This document shows positions 1-22,268 of a stretch of 64,000 bases of DNA, one piece after another. The position numbers were made by a program, and so were the translations under genes. The stretch lies in NCBI RefSeq assembly GCF_022846255.1, contig NZ_AP025682.1; one strand, given 5' to 3'. A model generated the notes under the pieces. The model did not search any database. It was not told the DNA's origin and worked only from the letters and a program-made list of their open reading frames with translations. Source of the stretch: Escherichia coli. Its GTDB lineage: Bacteria; Pseudomonadota; Gammaproteobacteria; Enterobacterales; Enterobacteriaceae. Each line of letters opens with the position of its first letter. The stretch's first letter is position 1.

Positions 1-1228
1 CGAGCCCGAAGCCAACCTGGCACTCATTTCTGTACCGGGAGACTACGCCGCCGCCGAAGCAATTAAAGCGTTAAACCTCGGAATGAACGTGATGATGTTC
101 AGCGATAACGTCAGTATCGTGCAGGAAAAATCCATCAAAACGCTTGCCCGAGAACGTCAGCGCATCGTAATGGGACCTGACTGTGGAACCGCCATTGTTA
201 ACGGCATTCCGTTAGGCTTCGCTAATGTGGTGAAACGCGGAGCAATTGGTGTTATTGGCGCGTCAGGCACCGGGCTACAGGAAGTGACTTGCCGAATCGA
301 CCAGCTCGGAGCGGGTATTTCTCAGGCGTTGGGAACAGGCGGACATGATCTCAGTGAAGAGATTGGTGGAATATCGATGCTCTTCGCTTTAGATGCGCTG
401 GCGCAAGACGATGAAACTCGCGTGATTGTGCTTATTTCAAAACCGCCTTCACCGATCGTTGCCCGGACTATTCTGGAGCGTGCCGAGGCTTGTGGAAAAC
501 CCGTGGTGGTGAATTTCCTCGGTGCGAATCCGCATGATCTGGCACGTCCCAATATCACCGCGGCCACCACACTTGCCAGCGCCGCAAATATCGCCGTGGC
601 GTTACTGAATGATCAACCACTTCCGACTATCGAGACCGAAATTTCCTGCGACGATCTCACAATGTTACAAAACGCCTGCCAGCGCCTGCCAGCCCATCGC
701 CAGGCGATACGCGGTGTTTTCGCCGGAGGAACCTTCTGCTACGAAGCGCAACTTATCTGCCAACAAAAGGGATTCATCGCAGCCTCCAATACGCCAGTTG
801 CGGGTAATCGTGCTCTGGCAAATATCTGGCAAATCGAAGATCACACGTTGATCGATATGGGCGACGATGATTTCACCCGTGGCAAACCGCATCCAATGAT
901 CGACCCGACTCTGCGCAATCAACGTCTGCTCAACGAACTCAACGACTCACACACTGCCGTCGTGTTATTCGACCTGGTACTTGGTTATGGCGCTTCCACG
1001 ACGCCTGCCAGCGAATTACTGGACCAACTTTCACACATCGACATGAATAACGCACCGTTGCTGATTGCGCACGTTTGCGGAACGGAAGCTGATCCGCAAA
1101 TACGCAGTCAGCAGATAAGCGCACTACAAAATGCAGGGGTCATCATCGCCAGCAGCAATGCACAGGCGGCGCTATGGGCCAGCACCGTTGCACAGACTCA
1201 GTTGCAGAAAAAGGGGCTAAACGCATGA
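1..1228 (+). CDS. FdrA-like protein (CoA-binding, NDP-forming acyl-CoA synthetase-like), 5'-truncated by window edge
   Basis: ORF 83..1228 stays open in frame back to position 2; Gly-rich GxIGxSGTG motif; stop overlaps next start (ATGA at 1225-1228). Confidence 0.65.
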   Translation, partial: EPEANLALISVPGDYAAAEAIKALNLGMNVMMFSDNVSIVQEKSIKTLARERQRIVMGPDCGTAIVNGIPLGFANVVKRGAIGVIGASGTGLQEVTCRIDQLGAGISQALGTGGHDLSEEIGGISMLFALDALAQDDETRVIVLISKPPSPIVARTILERAEACGKPVVVNFLGANPHDLARPNITAATTLASAANIAVALLNDQPLPTIETEISCDDLTMLQNACQRLPAHRQAIRGVFAGGTFCYEAQLICQQKGFIAASNTPVAGNRALANIWQIEDHTLIDMGDDDFTRGKPHPMIDPTLRNQRLLNELNDSHTAVVLFDLVLGYGASTTPASELLDQLSHIDMNNAPLLIAHVCGTEADPQIRSQQISALQNAGVIIASSNAQAALWASTVAQTQLQKKGLNA

Positions 1229-2649
1229 ATACCTTATTTAATCAGCCTTTGAAGGTCGTGAACGCGGGACTACACAGTTTTGCTGACAATATTCAACATG
1301 CCGGGGGAAGCGCAATTGCACTCAACTGGCAGCCACCAGCACAAGGCGATATTGACGCTGGATTGGATCTGGCATCGTTGCTACGTCATCCCCTGGTAGA
1401 AAATGCCAACCAAATCGCCATGACACGTTATCTCGAAGCACAGCCCGTGCTGGTGGATGTCATGCTCGCTAAAGAGGCCATTCCAGCAATGGCTGAACAA
1501 AAACGTATTTTGCACTCTGGCCCGCCGATTGCCTGGGAAGAGATGTGTGGTCCGGTAAAAGGGGCGATTATTGGTGCCATGCTGTACGAAGGTTGGGCCA
1601 CCAGCCAGCAAGACGCTGAAAACCAAATAAACGCAGGCGAAATCGACCTTGCCCCTTGTCATCATTATCACGCGGTTGGCCCAATGGCAGGCATCATCAG
1701 CCCGTCGATGCCGTTATGGGTGGTAGAAAACAAAACCAACGGCCATCGTACTTTTAGCAATTTCAATGAAGGGCTGGGTAAGGTTCTCCGTTTTGGCGCC
1801 AATAACGATGAAGTTCTCAATCGTCTGGCCTGGATGCGCGATGAACTGGCGCCGGCAATGAAAGCAGCAATCGCACAACACGGCGAGCTGGAACTCAAGC
1901 CATTAATGGCGCAGGCGCTGCATATGGGGGATGAAGTTCATAACCGCAATGCTGCCGCTACCGGTTTGCTGATTAAGCGCCTGCTCCCGGCATTGCTGGC
2001 CTGCTCTCTTCCACAGGAACATATCCAGCGCGTCGTGGCATTTATCACCGGTAACGATCACTTCTTCCTCAATCTTTCGATGGCCGCCTGTAAAGCAATG
2101 ATGGATGCCGCCGCCAATGTACCGTTCAGTTCAATGGTTACGGTGATGGCGCGTAACGGGGTGAATTTTGGTATTCGGCTTTCCGGTACTGGCGATCGCT
2201 GGTTCCAGGCTCCTGCCAATGCCGTTGAAGGTCTGTTCTTCCCCGGATTTGGCGTCGACGATGCCGCTGCTGACCTGGGTGATAGCGCAATTACTGAAAC
2301 CGCAGGTGTGGGTGGCTTCGCGATGGCGTCATCTCCAGCGATCGTCAAATTTGTGGGAGGCACCCCTGCCGATGCCACCAATAACAGCCGTAGGATGCAA
2401 GCAATCACCCTCGGTGGTAACCCCGCATTTACACTTCCTGCCCTCAATTTTGCCCCCACCGCAGCAGGGATTGATGCGCGTAAAGTGACCGATCGCGGCA
2501 TTTTACCGGTCATCAATACGGGTATCGCCCACAAACAAGCGGGGGTCGGGCAAATTGGTGCCGGGATCACCACTGCGCCGATGGCCTGTTTTGTCGCCGC
2601 TGTACGTGCACTGGCGGAGATCGTCGCAAAGGAGAACCATCATGGTTAA
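1225..2649 (+). CDS. DUF1116 family protein (YlbE/YahG-like)
   Basis: ATG at 1225 preceded by AAAAAGGGG; ORF-track product resembles E. coli YahG/YlbE; translationally coupled to neighbours. Confidence 0.7.
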   Translation: MNTLFNQPLKVVNAGLHSFADNIQHAGGSAIALNWQPPAQGDIDAGLDLASLLRHPLVENANQIAMTRYLEAQPVLVDVMLAKEAIPAMAEQKRILHSGPPIAWEEMCGPVKGAIIGAMLYEGWATSQQDAENQINAGEIDLAPCHHYHAVGPMAGIISPSMPLWVVENKTNGHRTFSNFNEGLGKVLRFGANNDEVLNRLAWMRDELAPAMKAAIAQHGELELKPLMAQALHMGDEVHNRNAAATGLLIKRLLPALLACSLPQEHIQRVVAFITGNDHFFLNLSMAACKAMMDAAANVPFSSMVTVMARNGVNFGIRLSGTGDRWFQAPANAVEGLFFPGFGVDDAAADLGDSAITETAGVGGFAMASSPAIVKFVGGTPADATNNSRRMQAITLGGNPAFTLPALNFAPTAAGIDARKVTDRGILPVINTGIAHKQAGVGQIGAGITTAPMACFVAAVRALAEIVAKENHHG

Positions 2650-3598
2650 GCCACTGGCTGTCGTCGCGGTTGGCGGCAATGCGCTCATTCAGGACGAGCA
2701 ACGCAATAGTATTCCCGATCAATATGTTGCAGTGATGGAAAGCGTGCAACATATCGTTGATATGGTTGAAGCCGGATGGGACCTGGTACTAACCCACGGT
2801 AATGGCCCGCAGGTGGGCTTTATTCTGCGCCGCTCTGAACTCGCCAGTAACGAAGTTTCTCCGGTTCCACTTGATTACGCCGTGGGTGATACACAAGGTG
2901 CAATTGGCTACATGTTCCAGAAAGCGCTGCATAACGAATTGGCTCGCCGTGGCATAAACAAACCGGTAATTGCCCTGGTGACACAAACGCGAGTCAGCCC
3001 ACATGACGATGCTTTCGCCAGCCCCAGTAAACCAATTGGCGCGTTTCTCGATGAAGCAACGGCCCAACAACGCCAACAACAACTCGGCTGGACGCTGATG
3101 GAGGACGCCGGGCGTGGTTGGCGGCGTACAGTTCCCTCTCCTGCACCACTGGAAATTATTGAGCACGACACCATCGCTCACCTGGTGCGCCAGGGATATC
3201 TGGTTATTGCCTGCGGCGGCGGCGGTATTCCGGTGGTGCGAGACGGGCAACAACTGAAAGGTGTGGAAGCCGTGATCGATAAAGATCTGGCCTCCGCGCT
3301 GCTCGCCAGTCAGTTAGGCGCAGATCTGCTGGTGATCCCCACCGGTGTAGAAAAAGTAGCGATTAACTTTGGTACACCACAACAACAGTGGCTCGACGCT
3401 ATCAGCGTTGCCGAAGCGCAAACGCTGTTGCGGGAAGGTCAGTTTGGTGTCGGCAGTATGCAACCCAAAGTGGAAGCCATTGTTGATTTCATCAATGCCA
3501 GCCAGCAACAAGGCAAACAGGCCAGCGGCCTGATTACTTCACCGCAAACCATAAAAGCAGCCCTGGCGCATCAGAGCGGTACATGGATAACCCTTTAA
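2642..3598 (+). CDS. carbamate kinase (ArcC/YahI/YqeA-like paralog)
   Basis: MVKPLAVVAVGGNALI N-terminus, THGNGPQVG and CGGGGIPVV motifs typical of carbamate kinase; ATG 2642 overlaps upstream stop by 8 nt. Confidence 0.85.
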   Translation: MVKPLAVVAVGGNALIQDEQRNSIPDQYVAVMESVQHIVDMVEAGWDLVLTHGNGPQVGFILRRSELASNEVSPVPLDYAVGDTQGAIGYMFQKALHNELARRGINKPVIALVTQTRVSPHDDAFASPSKPIGAFLDEATAQQRQQQLGWTLMEDAGRGWRRTVPSPAPLEIIEHDTIAHLVRQGYLVIACGGGGIPVVRDGQQLKGVEAVIDKDLASALLASQLGADLLVIPTGVEKVAINFGTPQQQWLDAISVAEAQTLLREGQFGVGSMQPKVEAIVDFINASQQQGKQASGLITSPQTIKAALAHQSGTWITL

Positions 3599-3614
3599 TT
3601 CTCTGGAGAACACA

Positions 3615-4004
3615 ATGACTACAACGCTTTTAGCCGTTAACGGAACGCTGATGCGCGGCCTGGAACTCAACCCAAATATGCAAAAAGCGGGCGGTATTTT
3701 TGTCCGTGAAGACCGAACTGACGCCCATTACCGGTTGTGGAGTATTAATGATCGCCATCCGGGAATGATTCGCGTGAATGAAGGAGGAACACACGTCGAC
3801 GTAGAAATTTGGCAATTACCGCTGGCCAGTTTTGCCGCTCTGTTAATGAGCGAACCCGCTGGGCTGGCAATTGGCAAAATCAAACTTGCCGATGGTAGCG
3901 AAGTGCTGGGCGTACTGGCAGAAAACTGGCTGACCGAAGGCCAACGGGAAATTACAGAACTGGGTAGCTGGCGCAAATACACCGGGCATTTTCATACTGT
4001 GTAA
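3615..4004 (+). CDS. small hypothetical protein, possibly gamma-glutamyl-cyclotransferase-like fold
   Basis: 129-aa ORF with GGAGA Shine-Dalgarno 8 nt upstream; weak resemblance to AIG2/GGCT-like N-terminus; in operon context. Confidence 0.45.
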   Translation: MTTTLLAVNGTLMRGLELNPNMQKAGGIFVREDRTDAHYRLWSINDRHPGMIRVNEGGTHVDVEIWQLPLASFAALLMSEPAGLAIGKIKLADGSEVLGVLAENWLTEGQREITELGSWRKYTGHFHTV

Positions 4005-4029
4005 CGCGCATTTATAAAGGGAACATACT

Positions 4030-5253
4030 ATGCGTAAAAAAGAAGAGAATCTGAATACGGCATCAGGATTGCGTATTGCCATGATTTTGCTGGGTATTGC
4101 CGTCACACCTGTGCTGTTGTCATCCTCAAGCCTCGGCAATCAACTTTCCAGCGGCAGTTTAATTAGCGTCGTATTGTTAGGCGGCGTCATTCTGACCTTA
4201 CTTTCAGCCATCACCATTAGCGTGGGAGAAAAAGCCCGCCTGCCAACGTATGGCATTGTGAAATATTCGTTTGGCGAAAAAGGGGCCATCGCCATTAACA
4301 TTTTGATGGCGATAAGTCTGTTCGGCTGGATTGCCGTTACCGCCAATATGTTTGGTCATTCGGTACATGACTTACTGGCTCAACATGGACTGGAAGTTCC
4401 ACTGGCACTGTTAGTGGCGGCTGGCTGTGTCATTTTTGTCGCCTCTACGGCATTTGGCTTTGCCGTTCTGGGAAAAATTGCCCAGGTTGCCGTGCCGGTT
4501 ATCGCGCTGGTGCTGTGTTACATCCTCTATGTGGCAACCCATACCGAAGTGGCAGTACCAGCGGCGATTGTGGAGATGAATACAGGTGTCGCCGTTTCCA
4601 CCGTTGTTGGCACCATTATTGTGCTGGTTGCCACACTGCCTGATTTCGGTAGTTTTGTGCATAACCGCAAACATGCGCTGATTGCCGCAGGCGTGACGTT
4701 TCTGGTTGCCTACCCTCTGCTCTACTGGGCGGGTGCAACGCCGAGCGCCATTAGTGGTCAGGGATCTTTACTGGGTGCGATGGCGGTATTCGGTGCGGTT
4801 CTGCCTGCGGCGCTGTTGTTGATTTTCGCCTGCGTCACCGGTAACGCGGGCAATATGTTCCAGGGCACGCTGGTGGTTTCCACACTGCTTACCCGCTTTC
4901 CCAAATGGCAGATTACCGTGGCGCTGGGTATCCTTTCCGCCATCGTAGGCAGTATGGATATTATGGCGTGGTTTATTCCGTTTCTGCTGTTCCTGGGTAT
5001 CGCCACGCCACCCGTTGCCGGAATTTATATCGCTGACTTTTTCCTTTATCGCCGTAATGGCTATCAAGAGTCAGTGTTAGCCCAGGAGTCACAGATTAAA
5101 GTGCTGACATTCGCAGCATGGATCATAGGCGCAGCGGTTGGCTTTATGACCGTAAAAGGCTTATTCACCCTGACGACGATCCCTTCGGTAGACTCGATTC
5201 TGGTGGCATGTATCGCGTATGCGATTCTCAGTCGGGCAAGTCAACACCGCTAA
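4030..5253 (+). CDS. NCS1-family permease (cytosine/purine/allantoin permease-like)
   Basis: 407-aa polytopic membrane protein with CodB-like sequence; AAGGGA Shine-Dalgarno. Confidence 0.75.
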   Translation: MRKKEENLNTASGLRIAMILLGIAVTPVLLSSSSLGNQLSSGSLISVVLLGGVILTLLSAITISVGEKARLPTYGIVKYSFGEKGAIAINILMAISLFGWIAVTANMFGHSVHDLLAQHGLEVPLALLVAAGCVIFVASTAFGFAVLGKIAQVAVPVIALVLCYILYVATHTEVAVPAAIVEMNTGVAVSTVVGTIIVLVATLPDFGSFVHNRKHALIAAGVTFLVAYPLLYWAGATPSAISGQGSLLGAMAVFGAVLPAALLLIFACVTGNAGNMFQGTLVVSTLLTRFPKWQITVALGILSAIVGSMDIMAWFIPFLLFLGIATPPVAGIYIADFFLYRRNGYQESVLAQESQIKVLTFAAWIIGAAVGFMTVKGLFTLTTIPSVDSILVACIAYAILSRASQHR

Positions 5254-5330
5254 TTCCTGGGTATACTCAGGCAATGATTACGGCTGAATCTGGAGAGATT
5301 CAGCCACTTTACCACTGACCAGGGAGCCTT

Positions 5331-6227
5331 ATGTTCATCTCAGACGAAACGCTTCGTGTTATTCATCTGGTCGCCAGACACCAGAGCATTACCACCGCAG
5401 CCGAGCAGTTAAATAAAGTCCCTTCCGCCATCAGTTACACCATCAAGAAAGCGGAAGAGAGCCTGGGCGTTGAACTGTTCATTCGTAAGGGACGCTATAT
5501 TGAATTATCGCCAGCGGGAAGTTACTTCATCGAACATAGCAAAACTATTCTTGGCGACCTGGAAGCATTAAAGCGCAACACAGTGCTGATTCACGATGGT
5601 ATTGAGCGTGAACTGACAATAGCGGTAAACAATATTATTCCTGGTGATTTGCTGGTGGCATTTATTCGAGATTTTGAACGGCAATTCACATCAACAACAC
5701 TGACGGTAGATCTTGAGGTATACAACGGCTGCTGGGATGCGCTGTACAGTAAGCGTGCTGATCTGGTCTACGGTGCTCCTCATGCAGTACCAAGCAGTGA
5801 AGGCATCATTAGCGAACCGGTCGGACAAATGGAATGGGATTTTGTCGTCAGCCCACTCCACCCACTGGCAGCGAAGCGGCATCCATTAGAAAACAGTGAA
5901 TTGCGTCATTATCCAGCGGTTTGTATCCGCGATACCTCCGTTAACTTCCCCCCGATGCAAGCCTGGTTGTTGGAAGGACAAAAACCCATTTTTGTTCCTG
6001 ACTTCGCTACGGCAATCGCCTTAATAGAACAAAACGTCGGTATTGGTTATATTCCACATCATCTGGCATTGCCGTTATTGAACAGCGGTAAATTGCTTAA
6101 AAAGCCAATGCGCGAACATAAACACGCCACCAAGTTATTTCTTGCCGCTCGTTCCGATGGTATGGGCAAAGCCTGTCAGTGGTGCATAGAATATTTAAGA
6201 AATCCGCAATTAATTTTCTGTTCCTGA
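5331..6227 (+). CDS. LysR-family transcriptional regulator
   Basis: N-terminal helix-turn-helix (ITTAAEQLNKVPSAISYTIKKAEESLGVELF) and LysR substrate-binding domain length. Confidence 0.85.
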   Translation: MFISDETLRVIHLVARHQSITTAAEQLNKVPSAISYTIKKAEESLGVELFIRKGRYIELSPAGSYFIEHSKTILGDLEALKRNTVLIHDGIERELTIAVNNIIPGDLLVAFIRDFERQFTSTTLTVDLEVYNGCWDALYSKRADLVYGAPHAVPSSEGIISEPVGQMEWDFVVSPLHPLAAKRHPLENSELRHYPAVCIRDTSVNFPPMQAWLLEGQKPIFVPDFATAIALIEQNVGIGYIPHHLALPLLNSGKLLKKPMREHKHATKLFLAARSDGMGKACQWCIEYLRNPQLIFCS

Positions 6228-6320: not shown

Positions 6321-8582
6321 TCATCCCCGACGCAAATTCTGCGCCGCCTGCACCATGTTCGCCAGTGCCGCGCGGGTTTCTGGCCAGCCGCGCGTTTTCA
6401 GGCCACAGTCCGGGTTGACCCACAGACGCTCTGCCGGAATGCGTTTTGCCGCTTTCTTCAGCAAGGCTTCAATCCATTCCACGCTCGGTACGTTTGGCGA
6501 GTGAATGTCATAGACGCCAGGACCGATTTCATTTGGATAATCAAACTCTTCAAACGACTCCAGCAACTCCATGTCGGAACGCGAGGTTTCGATGGTGATG
6601 ACGTCTGCGTCCAGCGCCGCAATCGAATCCATGATGTCGTTGAACTCGCAGTAACACATGTGAGTGTGGATTTGTGTGTCATCTTTCGCCACGGCGGCGT
6701 TGATACGGAAAGCCTCCACGCCCCACTGGAGATAGGCATCCCAGTCGCTGCGACGCAGTGGTAAACCTTCGCGCAATGCCGGTTCGTCAATCTGAATGAT
6801 GCCAATTCCAGCGGCTTCCAGGTCCGCCACTTCATCACGCAGCGCCAGCGCAATTTGTTTGGCGATGGTTTCACGGCTGACATCTTCACGCGGGAACGAC
6901 CAGCAGAGAATAGTCACCGGGCCGGTCAACATCCCTTTCACCGGTTTATCAGTCAGGGATTGCGCATATTTTGCCCACTCCACGGTAATCGGTGCCGGGC
7001 GGCTAACGTCACCAATAACAATCGGTGGCTTCACGCAGCGGGAACCGTAGCTCTGTACCCAACCGTTTTGCGTAAAGACAAAGCCATCCAGATGCTCGCC
7101 AAAGTATTCCACCATGTCATTACGCTCGGCCTCGCCATGTACCAGCACATCCAGTCCCAAACGTTCCTGCTCAACAATGGCCTGCTTGATATGTTCCGCA
7201 ATGCCCGTGCGGTAGTTATTGGCGTCGAGATTACCCTTTTTGAAATCCAGACGCAGGGTACGAATCTCCGTGGTTTGCGGGAAGGAACCAATCGTGGTGG
7301 TCGGCCACGCGGGCAGTTTAAAACGCGCACGCTGGGCTTCAGCACGCACTTCATAGACATTCGCACGCTGACTGTCCTGAGCGGTGATCGCCGCCAGACG
7401 CTTTTCTACTGCCGGATTATGTACACGAGTAGAGTGACGACGCGCCTGAATCGGAGCGCTCCACTCTGCCAGAGCTGCCGTATCACCACTGTTCAGCGTA
7501 TCGCGCAGCAATGCCAGTTCATGACATTTTTGCAGGGCGAAGGCAAACCAGCTTTTCACTTCTGCATCAAGACGCGTTTCCACGCTCAGGTCGATGGGGC
7601 TGTGCAGCAACGAGCAGGAAGATGCCACCCACAAATCGCGTTTGCCGACAATGTCCTTAATTTGCGCATATTTCTCGGTAAGATCGGCGCGCCAGACGTT
7701 ACGACCATTGATAAGACCCGCAGACAGCAGCCAGTCAGAAGGCAGACGCTTGTGCAGTTCAGCAACGTCATCTTTACCATGTACGAGATCGACATGCAGA
7801 CCCTGAACAGGCAGCGCAGTAATCGTGTCGAGGTTTGGCGTTACGCCTTCAAAATAGGTAGTCAGCAGCAGTTTCACCTGCCCCTGCAGAGCATCGTAAG
7901 CGGGTTTGTACGCATCCAGCCACGCCTGCGGCAGTTCCAGAACCAGCGCGGGTTCATCAATCTGTACCCACTCGATGCCGCGTTTTGCCAGTTCTGCCAG
8001 CACTTGCTGATAAACCGGCAGAATGTCGTTCAGCAGGCTCAGGCGATCAAACTGTTCACCTTTCACTTTACCCAGCCACAGGTAGGTAACCGGCCCCAGC
8101 AGCACAGGTTTCACCTTGTGGCCCAGCGCCAGCGCCTCGTCCACTTCCTCCAGCAGCTGCGTCCAGGTCAGTTTGAACTGTTGGCCTTTAACGAACTCCG
8201 GCACCATGTAGTGATAGTTGGTGTTAAACCATTTGGTCATTTCCGCTGCCGCCGCAGGTTCGCCAGTCGGTGCACGTCCACGACCAATACGGAACAGGGT
8301 GTCGATATCTACCGAACCATCTTTGTTCTGGTGACGCGCCGGAACGTTACCCAGCAGCAGGCTGGTGGTCAGGACATGATCGTACCAGGCAAAATCACCC
8401 ACCGGCAGCAGGTCGATACCTGCTTGCTTTTGTTGATCCCAGTGACGAGCACGCAGTTCACGCCCTACCGCCAGCAGTTCTTCACGCGTGGAGTTCCCCG
8501 CCCAATAACTCTCTTGCGCTTTTTTCAGCTCGCGACGCAGGCCAACGCGAGGGAAACCGAGGGTGTGATTAAGAATTGTCAT
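6321..8582 (-). CDS. metE: cobalamin-independent methionine synthase
   Basis: 753-aa product matching E. coli MetE ([29 protein letters not shown]...). Confidence 0.97.
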
Positions 8583-11323: not shown

Positions 11324-12346
11324 TTAAACCTCTGTAGAGCGGTTTCCGCTGGGTGAGTTATGCCTGTTGAAAAAATCAACGATAGCGTGGAGCGCGACTG
11401 AGCGCATTGCGTCCTTTTCAAAAAGGATCTCATGGTACGCACCTTTAATTACCAACGGCCGTCCTCCTTCGACAGGATGGCCCGCAGCGGTGCGTAGTTC
11501 ACAAAAACGGTCGTGCATGCGGTTATCCACCACGCGTTCCTCTTCAGCTTGTAAGAGAAGCGTTGGCGTGGCGTCATCACCCGCACCGGCTAACACCTGT
11601 TCGCCAGCCAGAATACTTTCGCGTACCCAATGGTAGGTCGGCCCACCGACGCGAATCGTTGGGTCATCAGCATAGAAACGTAAGTTACGTCGATATCGCT
11701 GTCTGCTGTGGGTCAGTACGTTGATAGCAAACGGCAACGCGCGCCAGCGCCCGGTGCCTATCGCATAGCCATCACGGAAACGTGGATGCGCTTCGGCCCA
11801 GTTAAGGATCTGCCGTGCCATAAATGACGGCATACGAATCACAATCCCAAACATTGGCGCAGTTAGCGCAATGGCGTCACATACACCTGGATGGCGTTGC
11901 AGAAATAATGTGGAGATCGCACCGCCCATCGAATGTGCCAGTATATAGCGTTTACGCCACGGACCGGGCTGAACCTCCTGTTGCCAGAATGCCGCCAGAT
12001 CATCAACATAATCATTAAAGCGATTAACATGCCCGAGATGTGGATCGGCTAACAGGCGACCGGAACGTCCCTGCCCGCGATGGTCGATGATTAAAACATC
12101 AAACCCCAAATGGAACAGGTCGTAGGCCAGTTCCGCATATTTTACGTAGCTCTCAATACGCCCCGGACAGATGACTACCACCCGGTCATGGTGCTGTGCG
12201 CGAAAACGGACAAAGCGAACCGGAATGTCATCCACACCAGTAAATTCTGCTTCATCACGCTGACGCCAGAAATCAGTCAGCGGTCCCATGGTAAAAGCAG
12301 CAAACGCGTTTTCTCTTGTTTCCCAGTCTTTTTGCTGCTGAAACAT
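11324..12346 (-). CDS. pldB: lysophospholipase L2
   Basis: 340-aa product with alpha/beta-hydrolase HSMGG motif matching PldB. Confidence 0.9.
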   Translation of the reverse strand: MFQQQKDWETRENAFAAFTMGPLTDFWRQRDEAEFTGVDDIPVRFVRFRAQHHDRVVVICPGRIESYVKYAELAYDLFHLGFDVLIIDHRGQGRSGRLLADPHLGHVNRFNDYVDDLAAFWQQEVQPGPWRKRYILAHSMGGAISTLFLQRHPGVCDAIALTAPMFGIVIRMPSFMARQILNWAEAHPRFRDGYAIGTGRWRALPFAINVLTHSRQRYRRNLRFYADDPTIRVGGPTYHWVRESILAGEQVLAGAGDDATPTLLLQAEEERVVDNRMHDRFCELRTAAGHPVEGGRPLVIKGAYHEILFEKDAMRSVALHAIVDFFNRHNSPSGNRSTEV

Positions 12347-12456
12347 CGGGTAATCTGCCTCTTAAACCACGTAAAATCGTTTTTTTAAGCGTGCCTGACA
12401 CAACGCTGCGACAGTAGCGTATTGTGGCACAAAAATAGACACACCGGGAGTTCATC

Positions 12457-13077
12457 ATGACCTTAGAATGGTGGTTTGCCTACCTGCTGACATCGATCAT
12501 TTTAAGCCTGTCGCCAGGCTCTGGCGCAATCAACACCATGACCACCTCGCTCAACCACGGTTATCGCGGCGCGGTGGCGTCTATTGCTGGGCTTCAGACC
12601 GGACTGGCGATTCATATTGTGCTGGTTGGCGTGGGGTTGGGGACGCTATTTTCCCGCTCAGTGATTGCGTTTGAAGTGTTGAAGTGGGCAGGCGCAGCTT
12701 ACTTGATTTGGCTGGGAATACAGCAATGGCGCGCCGCTGGCGCAATTGATCTTAAATCGCTGGCCTCTACTCAATCGCGCCGACATTTGTTCCAGCGCGC
12801 AGTTTTTGTGAATCTCACCAATCCCAAAAGTATTGTGTTTCTGGCGGCGCTATTTCCGCAATTCATCATGCCGCAACAGCCGCAGCTGATGCAGTATATC
12901 GTGCTCGGCGTCACCACTATTGTGGTCGATATTATTGTGATGATCGGTTACGCCACCCTTGCTCAACGGATTGCTCTATGGATTAAAGGACCAAAGCAGA
13001 TGAAGGCGCTGAATAAGATTTTCGGCTCGTTATTTATGCTGGTGGGAGCGCTGTTAGCATCGGCGAGGCATGCTTAA
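12457..13077 (+). CDS. rhtB: homoserine/homoserine-lactone efflux protein (LysE family)
   Basis: 206-aa LysE-family membrane protein matching RhtB. Confidence 0.9.
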
Positions 13078-13106
13078 AACTGGAATAAAGCTCACGTAAA
13101 TTAATG

Positions 13107-13141
13107 TGCCTCGAGAGATTGTTACATCCGCGCTCGAGGCA
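13107..13141. repeat. inverted repeat at the left edge of the rhtB-rhtC insertion
   Basis: TGCCTCGAG ... CTCGAGGCA, 9-bp perfect stem with 17-nt loop, no T-run. Confidence 0.4.
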
Positions 13142-13235
13142 TCTCGTAATAAGCGTAATCTGTTAATTTATTTACTATTTACTTCTCTTTGTTAGTGCCA
13201 GAATGCCGCCATATTTCACCCACGGATGATGAAAA

Positions 13236-14096
13236 ATGACGGAAGCAACGACACCACATGACGCAATCTTTAAGGCTTTTTTATCCCGACCAGAAACGGC
13301 CCGTGACTTTATTGAAATTCATCTGCCGCCTTCTTTAGTTAAACTCTGCAATCTTGATACGCTCCATCTCGAGTCCAGCAGTTTTGTAGAGGAAAACCTA
13401 CGCCAGTATTACAACGACGTACTTTATTCAGTAGAGACGACGAAAGGGTGCGGATATATCTATGTGTTGATTGAGCATCAAAGTTCACCTGATGAAAATA
13501 TGGCGTTCCGTATGCTTCGCTATGCTATTGCCACCATGCAGCGGCATCTTGAAGCGGGACATGATTATCTGCCTCTGGTGATCCCCATTCTTTTTTACCA
13601 GGGAAAGCGTAGCCCATATCCATGGTCAACAAACTGGCTCGATGGTTTTCCGGATCCGGACATTGCACGCGATCTCTATTTCCATGCTTTTCCGCTGGTT
13701 GATATTACGCTAATTCCTGATGACGAAATCATGCAACACCGCAGCATGGCCGCCTTTACGCTGGTACAGAAGCATATCCGTCAACGGGATATGACAACGC
13801 TGTTAGATAAGTTATCCCGCTTAATGATTCTGGGGCAGATGAGCGGACAGCAAATACGCATGTTGATAAACTACATGGCGCTGGTAGGTGAAGCACAGGA
13901 TGTACGAACATTAGTACATGGTCTGGCACAACGAGTGCCTCAACAAGGAGAGGAACTGATGACTTTAGCGGAAGAACTTCGGCGCGATGCCCTTCTCAAT
14001 GTCGCAAAAGCAATGCTACAGCGTGGCTTTGATTTGCAGTTGATTATGGAAATGACCGGGCTTTCTCAGGAAGACCTTTATCAATTGCAATCCTGA
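13236..14096 (+). CDS. Rpn-family recombination-promoting nuclease (YhgA-like, PD-(D/E)XK, transposase_31 family)
   Basis: 286-aa product closely resembling E. coli RpnA/YhgA N-terminus (TPHDAIFK..., LHLESSSF, VLIEHQS, MAFRMLRY, LPLVIPILFYQG, PLVDITLIPDDEIMQHR); lower GC than flanks. Confidence 0.85.
   Translation: MTEATTPHDAIFKAFLSRPETARDFIEIHLPPSLVKLCNLDTLHLESSSFVEENLRQYYNDVLYSVETTKGCGYIYVLIEHQSSPDENMAFRMLRYAIATMQRHLEAGHDYLPLVIPILFYQGKRSPYPWSTNWLDGFPDPDIARDLYFHAFPLVDITLIPDDEIMQHRSMAAFTLVQKHIRQRDMTTLLDKLSRLMILGQMSGQQIRMLINYMALVGEAQDVRTLVHGLAQRVPQQGEELMTLAEELRRDALLNVAKAMLQRGFDLQLIMEMTGLSQEDLYQLQS
13959..14096 (+). CDS. candidate nested in-frame small ORF (45 aa, RpnS-like) inside the Rpn-family gene
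   Basis: consensus AAGGAG at 13945-13950, 8-nt spacer, in-frame ATG at 13959; would express the C-terminal 45 residues separately. Confidence 0.4.
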   Translation: MTLAEELRRDALLNVAKAMLQRGFDLQLIMEMTGLSQEDLYQLQS

Positions 14097-14103
14097 TGTT
14101 ATT

Positions 14104-14126
14104 CCCCCTGATAGCGTATCAGGGGG
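14104..14126. terminator. strong hairpin between convergent Rpn-like gene and rhtC
   Basis: CCCCCTGATA gcg TATCAGGGGG, 10-bp perfect stem with 3-nt loop. Confidence 0.5.
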
Positions 14127-14132
14127 AAGTGC

Positions 14133-14753
14133 TTAACGCGAAATAATCAAATGAATGCCAAATCCGGCAAATAACGCCCCGGCAAAACCATCAATCCACT
14201 TCGCCAGACGCTGATAACCACGGCGCATTTGCGGCAGGGCAAACAGGCTGGCAACGACGGTAAACCACGCCAGTGTTTCGACAATAATCAACGCGAAAAT
14301 GCCCCAGCGTTCGGTGGTGCCAACGTTATCGCCGACAAACAGCGAGAATACCGAACCAAAGTAGATAATCGCTTTCGGATTGGCGAGATTGGTCAGTAAG
14401 CCTTTCAGGAAACTGCGCCCGCTTTTTGCCAGCTCAACCTGTGGTGCAGGCGCAGAAACCGCCTCTTTTTTCAGTGCACCGCGTAGCATCTGGTAACCCA
14501 TCCAGCAGAGATACAGGCCACCGCCCACCATAATCAGCGTATGCAGCCAGGCCATTTTTTCGATAATCAAATGCAGGCCAAGCAACGCAATCCCAGCCCA
14601 AACCATTACGCCGCAGGTAATGCCCAGCACGCCCATCATCGCTTCTTTACGGGAACGACTGACAGCGGTCTGAGAGACAAAAAAGAAATCGGGACCGGGG
14701 CTCATAAGCGCCACAATGTGCACCATGGCGACGGTGAGGAATAACATCAACAT
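14133..14753 (-). CDS. rhtC: threonine efflux protein (LysE family)
   Basis: 206-aa LysE-family protein matching RhtC. Confidence 0.9.
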   Translation of the reverse strand: MLMLFLTVAMVHIVALMSPGPDFFFVSQTAVSRSRKEAMMGVLGITCGVMVWAGIALLGLHLIIEKMAWLHTLIMVGGGLYLCWMGYQMLRGALKKEAVSAPAPQVELAKSGRSFLKGLLTNLANPKAIIYFGSVFSLFVGDNVGTTERWGIFALIIVETLAWFTVVASLFALPQMRRGYQRLAKWIDGFAGALFAGFGIHLIISR

Positions 14754-14816
14754 ACATTAGACTCGCGGGGGAAACGTTTACGGAGTCTTCATCCTGGCAC
14801 TTTTTTATCCTGCTGA

Positions 14817-16652
14817 CTACTCTTCGTCATCGCCATCGACATGCGCACGAATCAGCGCCATAAACGGTTTGCCAAAGCGTTCCAGCTTGCGCATCCCAAC
14901 GCCGTTAACGCTGAGCATTTCGCTGGCAGTGATCGGCATCTGTTCCGCCATCTCAATCAAGGTTGCGTCGTTAAATACCACGTACGGCGGGACATTGCTT
15001 TCATCGGCAATCGATTTACGCAGTTTGCGTAATTTGGCGAACAGTTTGCGATCATAGTTGCCGCCGAACGATTTCTGCATCGCTTTCGGTTTGAGCGCCA
15101 CGATACGCGGCACGGCAAGTTGCAAAGAGGATTCGCCGCGCAGCACCGGACGCGCAGCCTCTGTCAGTTGTAGGGCAGAATGCTGGGCAATATTTTGCGT
15201 CACCAGGCCGAGGTGAATCAGCTGGCGGATCACGCTCACCCAATGTTCATGGCTTTTATCACGGCCCATGCCATAGACTTTCAGTTTGTCATGACCATAG
15301 TCGCGGATACGCTGGTTATTAGCGCCACGAATCACTTCCACCACATAACCCATCCCAAACCGCTGATTCACCCGACCAATGGTGGAAAGGGCAATCTGAG
15401 CATCGGTTGAACCATCGTATTGTTTCGGCGGATCGAGGCAGATATCGCAGTTCCCGCACGGCTCCTGCCGCCCTTCGCCAAAGTAGTTCAGCAGCACCAG
15501 ACGACGGCAAGTTTGCGCTTCGGCAAACGCGCCCATCGCATTGAGTTTATGGCGCTCGATATCCTGCAATTGCCCCTGCGGCTTCTCTTCCAGACAACGG
15601 CGTAGCCACGCCATATCGGCCGGATCGTAAAACAGCATCGCTTCCGCGGGCAGGCCATCACGCCCGGCGCGTCCAGTTTCCTGATAATAGGATTCGATAT
15701 TGCGCGGAATATCAAAGTGGACCACGAAGCGGACGTTAGGCTTGTTGATGCCCATGCCAAACGCCACGGTCGCCACCACAATTTGCAGGTCATCGCGCTG
15801 GAATTTTTCCTGCACATCGGCGCGAACATTATTTTCCAGCCCGGCATGATAGGCCGCCGCGCTAATTCCCTTGCTTTGCAGGCGCGCAGCGGTGTCTTCT
15901 ACTTTCGCGCGGCTGTTGCAGTAGATAATGCCTGACTTACCGCGCTGTTCCTGCACGTAGCGCATCAACTGATCGAGCGGTTTGAATTTCTCCATCAGCA
16001 TGTAGCGAATGTTCGGACGGTCAAAACTGCTAATTTGAATCAGCGGATCGTTCAGCCCCAGCAGGCGCACGATATCCTGCCGCGTGGTGTCGTCGGCGGT
16101 GGCAGTCAGCGCCATAAACGGCAGCGTCGGAAAACGCTGACGCAGCTGACCGAGGGCAGCGTATTCCGGGCGGAAATCGTGCCCCCATTGGGAGATACAG
16201 TGCGCTTCATCAACGGCTAATAACACCGGATTCCAGTGCGCCAGATGCTCAAGGAAGTTATCCAGCATCAGGCGTTCCGGCGCGATATACAGCAGGCGGA
16301 TTTGCCCGGTGCGACAGCCTGTCATCACGTCAAGTTGCTGCTCGCGGGTTTGCGTCGAGTTAAGGCACGCCGCCGCCACGCCGTTGGCTTGCAGTTGATC
16401 CACCTGATCTTTCATCAACGAAATCAGCGGTGAGACAACCACGGTAAGGCCGTTTAGCAATAAGGCAGGGATTTGATAGCAAAGGGATTTTCCGCCACCA
16501 GTGGGCATGACGACCAGGCAATCGCGACCGGAAAGTACGGTGTCGATAATCTCTTCCTGGCCGGGGCGAAACTGTTGGTAGCCAAAGGTTTCTTGTAAAA
16601 CCTGTTTAGCCCCGGACTCCAGATTCAACACTTCCGCCTGCGCCACATTCAC
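14817..16652 (-). CDS. recQ: ATP-dependent DNA helicase RecQ
   Basis: product matches RecQ ([29 protein letters not shown]...); annotated start may be the GTG two codons downstream of the ORF start. Confidence 0.95.
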
Positions 16653-16660
16653 CCCGATTG

Positions 16661-16695
16661 CCTGAAATAAAAACAGGCGCTATTTTCAGCGCCTG
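16661..16695 (-). terminator. rho-independent terminator downstream of pldA
   Basis: CAGGCGCT / AGCGCCTG 8-bp stem with 6-nt loop, followed on the minus strand by TTTTTATTT. Confidence 0.55.
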
Positions 16696-16770
16696 CGCGA
16701 GAAACTGCAATGCTTTTAGTCTCTGAGAGGGTAATCCTGGATGCTGGATTCCAGATTTGCCAACCATTCA

Positions 16771-17640
16771 TCAAAACAGGTCGTTTAGCATAACTCCCAC
16801 ACCAACGCGGGTCTGGTTGAAGTTATAGTCGATGAGCGATTCGCCGTAACCACTGTAAACCTGAGTATAAAGGCGCACATGTTTGGTGATCGGGTAACTT
16901 AAGCCTAACTCCGCACCACCGTAACCGGTGTTCCAGTTGTACTGCCCTTTCGCGCTCAGTACCGCATCACCGAGGTGATAGCCGATTTTAAGCTGGTAAT
17001 AGCCCATATATTTGGTGATATCCGGGTTATCGTCAGTATTACCCACCACATACCACGGCTTCACCTCTACCAGCCAGTTACCGTTTTCTGCCATCAGGCG
17101 GGTATAAAGGCGGTTCCAGCTGCGGGAAGTCGGGTCAGAACGCCCGTTTGAGTCGTGGTTGTAGCCCATTTCCACATCGCGCAGCGTCCAGCCAGCAAAG
17201 TTGTAATCCGTGGCAAAACCGAGGAACAATTGCGGTTCGTAGTTGGTTTCACGAAACGGTGAAGACTCTTCGCTATTGGACAGTTGCCACCAGGATTTTT
17301 GCGTGTAAGACGCACCCAATACCGAGTTCGGGCCTAAAATCCCACGCCACAGCGGAAATGCCAGGCTCAACTGAAACTTTACTTCATCCTTACGCGCATT
17401 TTCCGCCCAGTCGTAACTGGCAATCGCTTCTTTATTCAGATCGCTGGTTTGGGTGTAGATGATGTAGTTGGTGTCATAAGGATAAAGGGTGAACGGATTG
17501 TCATGCTCCTGCAGCATATTCGCAATAATACTGCCACGCACCGCAGGCGCGTCATGCACCTCTTTTACCGTTGCCTCTTGCGCATACACTGCCATTGGCA
17601 ACATAAACACCGGCAACAACCAGCCCTGCAGAGTCCGCAT
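16771..17640 (-). CDS. pldA: outer membrane phospholipase A
   Basis: 289-aa product with signal peptide, matching PldA. Confidence 0.95.
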   Translation of the reverse strand: MRTLQGWLLPVFMLPMAVYAQEATVKEVHDAPAVRGSIIANMLQEHDNPFTLYPYDTNYIIYTQTSDLNKEAIASYDWAENARKDEVKFQLSLAFPLWRGILGPNSVLGASYTQKSWWQLSNSEESSPFRETNYEPQLFLGFATDYNFAGWTLRDVEMGYNHDSNGRSDPTSRSWNRLYTRLMAENGNWLVEVKPWYVVGNTDDNPDITKYMGYYQLKIGYHLGDAVLSAKGQYNWNTGYGGAELGLSYPITKHVRLYTQVYSGYGESLIDYNFNQTRVGVGVMLNDLF

Positions 17641-19772: not shown

Positions 19773-20159
19773 ATGTTTAAATCATCTATTAGAAATATAT
19801 TATACCCATCCAGGCTTAAGCATTTATCACGTTTGCAGTTTATAATCTACACATTAACATCATGGACAATATTAATAACTTTGAATGATATCAACCTGGC
19901 TTTGAGTTTCATTCTGGTCATCACTAATACGTATGTGAATATCAATATCGGAGCTAAAAGAATAAGAGATACTGGATGTAAGGCAATCTATTTTGTATTG
20001 ATTTCATTGGGTTTGACACTTTTTTCTATTATCTCGGCAGTAATTGAAGGGGTGAGATGTGATTCATTAAGCGTCCAACTCAACGTAGCATGGATATTAT
20101 TCACAACAATTATGTTATCTGCGATTCCCTCGGCTAAAATGTCGCTGTCAGCACACTAA
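19773..20159 (+). CDS. small hypothetical inner membrane protein in AT-rich islet (position of yigF in the K-12 layout)
   Basis: 128-aa ORF, hydrophobic segments; about 30% GC. Confidence 0.4.
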   Translation: MFKSSIRNILYPSRLKHLSRLQFIIYTLTSWTILITLNDINLALSFILVITNTYVNINIGAKRIRDTGCKAIYFVLISLGLTLFSIISAVIEGVRCDSLSVQLNVAWILFTTIMLSAIPSAKMSLSAH

Positions 20160-20183
20160 CTTACTCACAGCGACATCGTAAAG

Positions 20184-21134
20184 TTACAACCAGTTCTTCC
20201 GCTTAAAGTAGAGATACGGTGCCAGGCCCGCGAGGATCATAAAGATAATCGCGCCTGGGTAGCCGAAGCTCCACTTCAGTTCTGGCATAAACTCAAAGTT
20301 CATCCCGTAGCTGGAAGCAACCAGCGTCGGCGGCAGGAACACGACGGATACCACCGAGAAGATTTTGATGATGCGGTTCTGCTCGATATTGATAAAGCCC
20401 ATCGCCGCCTGCATCAGGAAGTTCACCTTCTGGAACAGGGATTCGTTATGCGGCAGCAGGGATTCGATATCTCGCAGGATTTCACGCGCCTGCTCCAGTT
20501 GCCCACCCGGTAAACGCGCCTTGCGTACCAGGAAGTTGAGCGCACGCTGGGTATCCATCAGACACAGGCGAACTTTCCAGCCGATATCTTCCAGTTCCGC
20601 CAGCGTAGAGAGCGCTTCGTCATACTCATCGCCCTGATGCCCTTCCATAATCACCCGGCTCAACTGCTCCAGGTCGCTATAGATATTTTCAATTTCATCT
20701 GCCAGCTGTTCGATTTTGGTTTCGAACAGATCCAACAGCAGCTCGTAGGCGTTACCGTCTACCATCGACTGGCTACGGGCACGCATACGATACAGACGAA
20801 AAGCGGGCAGTTCACGCTCACGCAAAGTAAACAGACGACCATCACGGATGGTAAATGCCACAGTGGAGTTACCGGCGTGATCTTCCGCATCTTCAAAGAA
20901 GAAGAAGGAGTGAATATGCAGGCCGTCATCGTCTTCAAAGAAACGTGCCGATGCTTCGATGTCTTCCAGTTCCGGGCGGGTTGCCAGGCTCTGGCCAAGT
21001 TCAGATTGTACGCGCAGTCGCTCGTCGTCGTCCGGTTCGACAAGATCAATCCATACTGCATTTACAAGGGGTTGTGACTCTTCGACTTCCAGCCGGGTCA
21101 GTCGGTTATTTTCCAGTTGAAATGCGCTCAGCAT
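20184..21134 (-). CDS. corA: magnesium/cobalt transport protein CorA
   Basis: [17 protein letters not shown]... 316 aa with the GMN motif ([11 protein letters not shown]); start at the internal ATG of ORF 20184..21149. Confidence 0.97.
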
Positions 21135-21503
21135 GACCGGGACTCCCAATGCTTAAAATATCGGACAGTTCGGTGGGCACACAGAAACAAATTGGGTTTC
21201 AGACCATTAAACAGCCTGACTCAGCGCGACGGGAAAAATTGAGGTCGCTGACAACCGCTAAGGCTATCAGCAAAAAGGGATAGCCTTAGGAGTTGATCCT
21301 GGATGACAGGATAGTGAGCCAGTATCTACTGGGTGTGTCCAAGGCGAATGTCCTCTTAGAGTGATCGTGCGCGCATGTTACGCCAGCAAAATTTTGCCGT
21401 CAACACGCAACAGAACACCACAGAACAATAGTTGAACTTCGCGCTTTTTGGTACTCGTCAAGGTCGCTAACAGGATAAAAAAATCCCACATCCAGGACCT
21501 ATA

Positions 21504-22268
21504 ATGGCGCATCGGCTACTCATTGGTAAAGGAATGATCACCTTGAATCTCAAACGGATTTTTCTCGCCCTCACCTTACTTCCCTTGTTTGCTGTTGCCG
21601 CTGATGATTGCGCACTCTCAGATCCGACGCTGACCGTACAGGCGTATACCGTTAATACTCAAACAGAGCGGGTGAAAATGTACTGGCAAAAAGCCAATGG
21701 CGAAGCGTGGGGAACGTTACATGCGCTGCTGGCGGATATGAATAGTCAGGGTCAGGTGCAGATGGCGATGAACGGCGGCATCTATGATGAAAGCTATGCG
21801 CCGCTCGGTTTGTACATCGAAAACGGTCAGCAGAAGGTGGCGTTAAATCTCGCTTCAGGTGAAGGGAATTTCTTTATTCGTCCTGGCGGCGTGTTTTATG
21901 TCGCGGGAGATAAAGTCGGCATCGTTCGTCTGGATGCCTTTAAAACCAGTAAAGAGATTCAGTTTGCGGTGCAGTCAGGGCCATTGTTGATGGAAAACGG
22001 TGTAATTAATCCGCGTATTCATCCCAACGTCGCCTCACGTAAAATTCGTAACGGTGTTGGGATTAATAAACATGGGAACGCCGTGTTTTTGTTGAGCCAG
22101 CAGGCGACAAATTTTTATGATTTTGCCTGTTATGCCAAAGCAAAACTGAACGTTGAGCAGCTGCTTTATCTTGATGGCACAATTTCACATATGTATATGA
22201 AAGGCGAGGCAATCCCGTGGCAACGCTATCCTTTTGTCACCATGATTTCCGTCGAGCAGAAAGGTTAA
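21504..22268 (+). CDS. yigE: DUF2233 (phosphodiester glycosidase-like) protein YigE
   Basis: 254-aa ORF with N-terminal signal-like segment; length and position match K-12 yigE as I recall. Confidence 0.75.
   Translation: MAHRLLIGKGMITLNLKRIFLALTLLPLFAVAADDCALSDPTLTVQAYTVNTQTERVKMYWQKANGEAWGTLHALLADMNSQGQVQMAMNGGIYDESYAPLGLYIENGQQKVALNLASGEGNFFIRPGGVFYVAGDKVGIVRLDAFKTSKEIQFAVQSGPLLMENGVINPRIHPNVASRKIRNGVGINKHGNAVFLLSQQATNFYDFACYAKAKLNVEQLLYLDGTISHMYMKGEAIPWQRYPFVTMISVEQKG

Follow-up and report, generated by a model that had tools for sequence, protein, structure and literature searches.

A stretch of 64,000 nucleotides of Escherichia coli DNA (contig NZ_AP025682.1 of RefSeq assembly GCF_022846255.1; this whole stretch is referred to as the window) carries, between the core genes rhtB and rhtC, a 1,055-bp segment with a gene for a 286-amino-acid protein of the Rpn family of PD-(D/E)XK nucleases. 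This segment, here called the cassette, very probably holds an intact rpn gene, a sixth on the chromosome and variable between strains. The gene belongs to the RpnL/RpnS gene-within-gene type, in which a full-length nuclease (RpnL) and a small antitoxin (RpnS) would be produced from one reading frame; it is not a transposon, occupies a fixed slot and has spread recently. The locus is laid out as follows.

13078-14132, unstranded: variable intergenic cassette of 1,055 bp, which replaces the 61-bp spacer of K-12-type genomes with its repetitive extragenic palindromic (REP) element.
13236-14096, plus strand: rpnL, a 286-amino-acid Rpn-family PD-(D/E)XK nuclease and predicted toxin (from the open reading frame, the match to PF04754 and conserved residues).
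12457-13077, plus strand: rhtB, the left core flank (list of open reading frames, RefSeq annotation and alignment to K-12).
14133-14753, minus strand: rhtC, the right core flank (list of open reading frames and RefSeq annotation).

The coordinates of rhtB, of the 286-amino-acid frame and of rhtC in the preliminary description, which had been made from the letters of the window alone, agree with the list of open reading frames, and the spacer of about 1.05 kb that it set against a short one in K-12 measures 1,055 bp here versus 61 bp in K-12 MG1655, where rhtC and rhtB are convergent. The GC (guanine plus cytosine) content of the spacer is lower than that of the flanks, as had been noted, to a modest degree (0.42-0.48 versus 0.50-0.56). 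In both flanking genes, the last sense codon (at its third base) and the stop codon are where divergence from K-12 begins: rhtB ends in GCT TAA in the window and in GCG TGA in K-12, and rhtC ends in CGT TAA and CGG TGA, respectively. Relative to K-12, the entire rhtB-rhtC intergenic region is exchanged, and there is no clean insertion. Alignment to K-12 and to a pangenome set, as the preliminary description had suggested, yielded 645 carriers, with breakpoints at the last codons of rhtB and rhtC. These carriers were found among 5,426 complete E. coli genomes (about 12%, a share that reflects heavy sampling of clinical lineages), and every one of them has a single cassette copy of 99% identity or more, invariably located between rhtB and rhtC, whereas 4,776 of the 5,426 genomes have the K-12-type short spacer. 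Carriers include the enteropathogenic E. coli (EPEC) strain E2348/69, O25b:H4-ST131 and strain ST648, while an O1:K1:H7 avian pathogenic E. coli (APEC) strain is a non-carrier.

Membership of the 286-amino-acid protein in the Rpn/YhgA family, proposed at the outset, is borne out by profile searches. The protein matches Pfam PF04754 (Transposase_31, YhgA-like) with E=4.3e-82 over residues 6-206 and model positions 1-201 of 203, and it passes NCBIfam TIGR01784 ('Rpn family recombination-promoting nuclease/putative transposase') with 180.5 bits at a cut-off of 52.1. In RefSeq, the identical protein is called the Rpn family nuclease WP_000133649.1 and occurs in hundreds of genomes. The RpnA equivalog model NCBIfam NF007361 gives 345.8 bits, below its cut-off of 583, and fails. 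Identity to the K-12 paralogs, whose sequences were taken from the MG1655 record and of which RpnD is a pseudogene, amounts to 55% for RpnB, 52.7% for RpnA, 51.6% for RpnD, 51.2% for RpnE and 50.5% for RpnC. The earlier statement that the protein closely resembles RpnA was thus too strong, the distance to all K-12 paralogs being about equal and RpnB being the nearest. Because of this 50.5-55% identity and the failed RpnA equivalog cut-off, sequence comparison places the rhtB-rhtC rpn gene in a separate, sixth paralog lineage, not among copies of rpnA.

The catalytic residues are preserved. D9, D61, E80, Q82, R92 and D163 are the equivalents of RpnA D11, D63, E82, Q84, R94 and D165, mutation of which altered the behaviour of RpnA (PMC5350276); all six are kept, and they are invariant across an alignment of 25 sequences. 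By homology, RpnL would be a PD-(D/E)XK DNA endonuclease, Mg-dependent, Ca-stimulated and largely non-specific like RpnA, whose nuclease activity was reported to be Mg-dependent and Ca-stimulated with little or no sequence specificity (PMC5350276); the label 'Ca-dependent', which the preliminary description had attached to Rpn endonucleases, does not fit that report. Unopposed RpnL may be toxic, by analogy with RpnA, RpnB and RpnP2, and the toxic, anti-phage character that had been attributed to the family is indeed published (PMC10400941). Toxicity and SOS induction upon overexpression count among the traits of the family.

Rpn genes have been shown to encode a toxic full-length nuclease, RpnL, together with a small antitoxin, RpnS (Zhong et al. 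2023, PMC10400941). Production of the antitoxin relies on a promoter and a start codon inside the gene; the antitoxin corresponds to the variable C-terminal domain, a three-helix unit, and differs between strains by four-amino-acid repeats (PMC10400941). The marks of this rpnL/rpnS gene-within-gene layout, which had initially been missed, are present at the sequence level in the cassette, the internal promoter as a candidate box, and the following elements can be assigned to the layout or to the start of rpnL.

13959-14096, plus strand: rpnS, an in-frame internal open reading frame of 45 amino acids from M242, predicted antitoxin (HTH_Rpn_C/three-helix; from homology to RpnA-S).
13945-13950, plus strand: Shine-Dalgarno sequence AAGGAG, 8 nt before the internal ATG at 13959 (from sequence and alignment).
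13844-13872, plus strand: candidate internal promoter for the rpnS transcript, with -35 box CGGACA (13844-13849), a 17-nt spacer and extended -10 box TGaTAAACT (13864-13872) (from synonymous conservation and positional homology).
13196-13204, plus strand: candidate extended -10 box TGcCAGAAT of the rpnL promoter (suggested by a conserved block).

M242 aligns with M244, the proven internal start of RpnA. This internal start is kept in seven orthologs and four K-12 paralogs, and GGAG stands at the homologous position in the seven orthologs and in K-12 rpnA, rpnB, rpnC and rpnE. The crystal structure of RpnA-S (PDB 7TH0) aligns over its full length, with its residue 1 at M242 (E=0.0029 with the single sequence and 4.1e-10 with an ortholog profile). 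A predicted AlphaFold model with a predicted local distance difference test score (pLDDT) of 71 contains helices at residues 235-262, 267-274 and 278-285, and the newer Pfam family PF27070 (HTH_Rpn_C) is recorded in precomputed tables for the near-identical protein P0015 (99% identity) and for more distant homologs.

Additional conservation is visible in the codons ahead of the internal start. Synonymous-site identity across eight orthologs has a mean of 0.53 and rises to a peak of 0.85 over 13824-13870, and the corresponding codons of K-12 rpnA, rpnB and rpnE hold ATGACA and TTTAAT at a spacing of 17 nt. This conservation points to the box at 13844-13872, which matches the consensus at 8 of 12 hexamer positions, as the putative internal promoter of rpnS; internal promoters have been reported for rpn genes (PMC10400941). 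At the other end of the gene, the 158 nt from the rhtB stop to the rpn start finish in a block conserved across genera. In an upstream alignment of 7 loci, this block (13195-13238) reads gTGCCAGAATGCCGCCA...CACGGATGAT..ATG and includes TGcCAGAAT, whereas the conserved leader of the K-12 rpn paralogs is different from this 5' region.

On these grounds, a working scheme can be proposed for the cassette. The internal promoter (approximately 13844-13872) would give rise to a shorter transcript, from which the 45-amino-acid RpnS would be translated by way of AAGGAG-N8-ATG at M242. RpnS, being the C-terminal helical domain of the same protein, would be made in excess and would bind and block RpnL in a complex, as described for other members of the family (PMC10400941). 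Phage infection might then disturb the RpnL/RpnS balance and free the nuclease, resulting in an abortive-type defence, a step suggested by homology.

The same slot is occupied in related genera. In a scan of one genome per species, the arrangement rhtB-rpn-rhtC was detected in the same orientation in Pseudocitrobacter faecalis (80% amino acid identity), three Citrobacter species (67-68%) and two Kluyvera species (65-66%). A Klebsiella pneumoniae chromosome filed as a plasmid, found among plasmid records, has this arrangement too (65.6%). The RpnS frames of the slot orthologs are 45, 49, 53, 53, 53, 53, 57 and 65 amino acids long, that is, 45+4n; the steps are EGxx-like repeats inserted seven residues past the start, and the E. 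coli allele is the zero-repeat form. Between genera, rpn has a nucleotide identity of 69-80%, comparable with the 77-84% of rhtB and rhtC, and within Citrobacter and Kluyvera rpn tracks its flanks. Because the slot orthologs diverge similarly to the flanking genes, rpn is, as judged from these alignments, an old resident of the rhtB-rhtC slot in the family Enterobacteriaceae that is lacking from most E. coli. The insertion initially claimed is therefore to be divided: K-12 and most E. coli indeed lack the gene (4,776 genomes versus 645 carriers), but a discrete new insertion does not agree with an old slot resident, and the term holds relative to K-12 only. Representative genomes of other Escherichia species, along with the E. 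coli representative, gave only paralogs of at most 57% identity. In Citrobacter freundii MO_AK867 (3339-4407), the slot holds a pseudogene with a frameshift near codon 125, in the nuclease domain, while the C-terminal part including the whole RpnS frame is intact; this state would fit loss of the toxin with the antitoxin kept.

Within Escherichia, the cassette coincides with a sharp valley of diversity, as determined from eight E. coli genomes and summary counts. Between the window and strain FDAARGOS_497, there are 112 differences in 6 kb of flank and 0 in 1,124 bp (13033-14156), and a comparison of five E. coli genomes shows differences of 0-0.47% for the cassette and of 0.5-3.4% for the flanks. 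The protein is identical in four sampled carriers of the B2 and F lineages. AP027926.1, a 4.7-Mb chromosome labelled E. fergusonii (the label being a cluster name), carries a 99% identical protein in the same slot; its cassette differs from that of the window at 12 of 1,055 bases (1.1%), compared with 4-18% per 250 bp in the flanks. Flank haplotypes are common to carriers and non-carriers of related lineages, up to the junction, and the low-divergence tract stops within approximately 10-80 bp of the cassette edges in comparisons of E. coli lineages as well as of species. Since the cassette is far less diverged than its flanks and flank haplotypes are shared in this way, the comparisons indicate the recent spread of one cassette copy from lineage to lineage and over a species boundary. 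Homologous recombination in the conserved flanks would be the simplest means by which a near-invariant Escherichia copy moved between lineages into a fixed slot reaching from the rhtB stop to the rhtC stop. Sharp cassette edges would be expected under such recombination, because the far commoner non-carrier DNA could overwrite carrier flanks only to where homology ends. Positions 1-25000 of the window are at most 98.3% identical to any of the 5,426 complete E. coli genomes, whereas several strains have a cassette 100% identical to that of the window; because of this limited identity over 25 kb, the lineage of the window is not represented in the complete-genome collection.

Two observations concern the neighbourhood of the slot in other strains. 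In E. coli VTB97379v, the region corresponding approximately to window positions 12975-14270 has a short REP-type spacer, dense substitutions at the 3' ends of rhtB and rhtC, and 92.8% identity to K-12 over 400 bp; it looks like a divergent import spanning the slot, so that the site would be recombination-active even without rpn. AP027926.1 has, at 7481-7963 (approximately window 16652-16771), a gene for a 160-amino-acid WapI-family protein (PF24716) between recQ and pldA, which is missing from the window.

A plasmid was also considered as the vector of the cassette and was set aside: the best plasmid copies in PLSDB are at most 66% identical, and the top matches are pieces of chromosome labelled as plasmids. 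The PLSDB records CP125156.1, NZ_CP129856.1 and NZ_CP151862.1 match the protein, and several such records are chromosomes or chromosome fragments filed as plasmids; mislabelled entries include one of 5.37 Mb from K. pneumoniae and one of 425 kb from C. freundii with pldB-rhtB-rhtC-recQ. Among the 645 E. coli hits, the lone 'plasmid' location is probably a similar mislabel.

The palindromes near the ends of the cassette, on which the idea of a bounded element had been founded, have the following positions.

13107-13141, plus strand: left palindrome, an exact inverted repeat with 9-bp arms TGCCTCGAG / CTCGAGGCA (13107-13115 and 13133-13141) and a 17-nt loop, 30 nt past the rhtB stop.
14102-14128, unstranded: right hairpin with a perfect 12-bp stem (14102-14113 and 14117-14128) and a loop of 3 nt, located between the stop codons of the converging genes rpn and rhtC (from folding).

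The left repeat is exactly as first described, with a 17-nt loop, and the right hairpin is present as well, but with a 12-bp stem at 14102-14128 and not a 10-bp stem at 14104-14126. What cannot be maintained is that the two palindromes bound the gene: they are unrelated in sequence, both fall within the variable segment, at 30 nt and 4 nt from its respective ends, and they are accompanied by no terminal inverted repeats and no convincing target-site duplication. Lacking any shared sequence, the left and right palindromes cannot count as terminal inverted repeats themselves, and neither recurs within the 64-kb window. The left palindrome folds no better than shuffled sequence (z = -1.46), is not conserved at orthologous loci, and is probably a weak rhtB 3' hairpin or a product of chance, not the end of an element. 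For the right hairpin, folding is far stronger than in shuffled sequence (z = -5.2 on the plus strand and -6.0 on the minus strand). At its position, each of the six orthologous loci that were folded has a GC-rich hairpin of different sequence, and K-12 has a REP hairpin, the REP element of the K-12 spacer being repeated elsewhere in E. coli genomes; the right hairpin is probably a 3'-end stem-loop common to rpn and rhtC, which converge on it. Counting perfect hairpins with stems of 9 bp or more gives 42 k-mer hits in the window, at about 20 sites and mostly just past gene ends, compared with 4.5 hits in shuffles, and since such hairpins are common at gene ends here, the palindromes can be regarded as ordinary 3'-end features. 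Intrinsic terminators at the palindromes were considered and rejected, a U-tract being missing; the four terminator-like hits of the scan lie elsewhere and are weak.

One alternative, an insertion sequence-like autonomous mobile element that transposed into the rhtB-rhtC spacer with the palindromes as its ends, is extremely improbable. It draws on the annotation of the family as 'putative transposase', on the GC content below that of the flanks and on the 7-bp word TGCTTAA, which is directly repeated at the two cassette edges (13071-13077 and 14130-14136). This repeat, however, overlaps both TAA stop codons, which contribute four of its seven bases; 7.7% of shuffles yield a common word of this length or longer, and it is absent at the orthologous loci of other genera. 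As a target-site duplication it was rejected, being compatible with chance, and empty sites have a different 61-bp spacer in place of one TGCTTAA. The palindromes are not inverted copies of each other, the cassette has one copy at one site in 645 genomes with no second copy in the window, and plasmid copies are at most 66% identical. Moreover, rpn genes are reported to lack terminal repeats and target duplications, and their fold to occur in no autonomous transposase (PMC10400941). A distinctly unlikely, though less remote, account is that of an ancestral Escherichia gene inherited vertically and lost through many deletions, with no recent horizontal spread. The long residence that it requires is in keeping with the same-slot orthologs of other genera, which have diverged about as much as their flanks, but it predicts a cassette as diverged as its flanks, whereas 0-0.47% is seen against 0.5-3.4% among E. 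coli lineages, no difference over 1,124 bp against 112 over 6 kb in one pair, and 1.1% against 4-18% for the E. fergusonii-labelled genome; the representatives of other Escherichia species, in addition, gave paralogs of at most 57% identity only.

Two further possibilities concern what the gene does and how it moves. That it is an eroded or domesticated remnant with no role in defence, serving as a low-activity housekeeping nuclease or kept through toxin-antitoxin addiction, is unlikely. The activity of RpnA is low and non-specific, and eroded mobile elements have been suggested (PMC5350276); housekeeping roles have been allowed for Rpn proteins (PMC10400941); the neighbours are core genes with no defence island and no PADLOC match; and one C. 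freundii has a frameshifted slot gene with the RpnS part intact. On the other side stand the intact and conserved reading frame, catalytic residues, internal start and promoter-like box, the single protein sequence across the four sampled B2- and F-lineage genomes, and the spread across lineages and species, which suggests an advantage or a selfish drive. It is highly improbable that the cassette drives its own import into the rhtB-rhtC slot, by a homing-like or Rpn-stimulated, possibly RecA-independent replacement of the empty allele through very short homology at the rhtB and rhtC ends, making the slot a dedicated docking site of one Rpn lineage in Enterobacteriaceae, with the cassette passing between E. 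coli and E. fergusonii as a precisely bounded unit; if true, this would be homing-like selfish behaviour of a toxin-antitoxin defence gene. Such import would agree with the end of the low-divergence tract approximately 10-80 bp from the cassette edges, with the patchy occupation of the slot in several species, and with reports that Rpn overexpression raises RecA-independent recombination and that two independent rpnC insertions may have occurred at one locus (PMC5350276). Sharp edges, however, are expected under ordinary recombination too, and the comparison covered a handful of genomes. To our knowledge, site-specific cleavage is known for no Rpn protein. RpnA itself cuts with little or no sequence specificity (PMC5350276).

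Several results weigh against the preferred reading of the cassette as a gene-within-gene rpn locus with a predicted defence role. Among Rpn proteins, phage defence has been shown for the plasmid protein RpnP2 alone (PMC10400941). A search of PADLOC-DB v2.0.0 returned no defence-system match beyond a chance-level one (E=0.0037) to a CARF_HEPN model, and no hit to an Rpn-type model, which the library may lack, so that the missing match carries little weight; the neighbours of the cassette are housekeeping genes, with no defence genes among them. Structure searches with the predicted model of the 286-amino-acid protein, whose pLDDT of 71 is moderate, gave no significant match, with PD-(D/E)XK nucleases, whose core fold is alpha-beta-beta-beta-alpha-beta, as weak hits only. 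A sigma-70 consensus scan of 12900-14300 called no site, and the candidate promoters of rpnL and rpnS each match at 4 of 6 positions per hexamer. No U-tract follows the left palindrome or, on either strand, the right hairpin. Finally, the RpnS region shows no four-amino-acid repeat variation within E. coli, the 645 copies being at least 99% identical, which differs from the intraspecies variation reported for other Rpn proteins. An Rfam search of 12300-14900 found no meaningful RNA family.

Among characterized systems, the closest are RpnB (YfcI) and RpnA (YhgA) of K-12. Like the rhtB-rhtC rpn gene, they belong to the same Pfam and NCBIfam family, fall into the same length class (292-296 versus 286 amino acids), have the same catalytic and functional residues, an internal start at the corresponding methionine, the same placement of the Shine-Dalgarno sequence and an internal promoter-like box at corresponding codons, with RpnA-S (PDB 7TH0) being homologous to the C-terminal domain, and are likewise single genes wedged between core genes. 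The rhtB-rhtC gene differs from them in its identity of 55% to RpnB and 53% to RpnA, its other locus, its absence from K-12, its different conserved 5' region, and its repeat-free RpnS of 45 amino acids, which is shorter than every K-12 RpnS (49-59 amino acids). RpnP2, encoded on a plasmid of ECOR13, shares the family and the RpnL/RpnS logic and itself defends against T-even phages, most strongly at alkaline pH (PMC10400941), whereas the rhtB-rhtC gene is chromosomal, sits in a fixed slot with PLSDB copies of at most 66% identity, and has a predicted defence role. The rpnC (yadD) gene at panD-panC also occupies one syntenic slot in several enteric genera in a patchy manner, which was read as repeated acquisition (PMC5350276); unlike rpnC, the orthologs in the rhtB-rhtC slot diverge roughly with their flanks between genera, and the recent spread in Escherichia is shown by the diversity valley. 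Insertion sequences, suggested by the 'putative transposase' and ISNCY labels, resemble the cassette as single-gene units of lower GC that are present or absent between strains, but the cassette has no terminal inverted repeats, no credible target duplication, and one copy at one site; the PD-(D/E)XK fold of Rpn is not known in autonomous transposases (PMC10400941).

The locus also offers some features outside the cassette, of which the nearest are these.

11324-12346, minus strand: pldB, before rhtB.
14817-16652, minus strand: recQ, beyond rhtC.

Farther to the left, positions 83-6227, upstream of metE, encode FdrA, a DUF1116 protein, a carbamate kinase, an allophanate-hydrolase-related protein, a cytosine permease and a LysR regulator, as assigned by homology to strain EC476. 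This block, which we take to be missing from that position in K-12, may be another strain-variable insert. In E. coli EC476, one of the closest complete genomes, positions 20126-21801, beside corA, hold a partial corA copy, a YPO3983-family gene and a DUF943 gene, which are seemingly not in the window (approximately 20100-20200).

The gene itself has already been annotated in public genomes, and the class of mechanism was published in 2023 (PMC10400941). A full-text literature search for Rpn together with rhtB or rhtC found no paper, although the strain survey in the supplement of PMC10400941 may list the paralog. The paralog with its slot, an RpnS that has no repeats, the conservation of the putative internal promoter box, and the diversity valley across lineages and species apparently have not been described before.

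The known workings of Rpn proteins are unchanged by these findings, which would bring the number of chromosomal Rpn toxin-antitoxin genes to six, five having been studied in K-12. The gene is found in medically important lineages (ST131, ST648 and EPEC E2348/69) and not in laboratory strains, so that work on K-12 would miss any effects it may have on phage sensitivity or genome stability. The repeat-free RpnS, the shortest in this comparison, and the series with four-residue steps in related genera form a natural set for studying how repeat number sets toxin-antitoxin specificity; for RpnC, a need for matching repeat numbers has been shown. Furthermore, the combination of a fixed slot, patchy presence and a diversity valley may provide a clean case of how non-mobile defence genes travel by recombination in their flanks.

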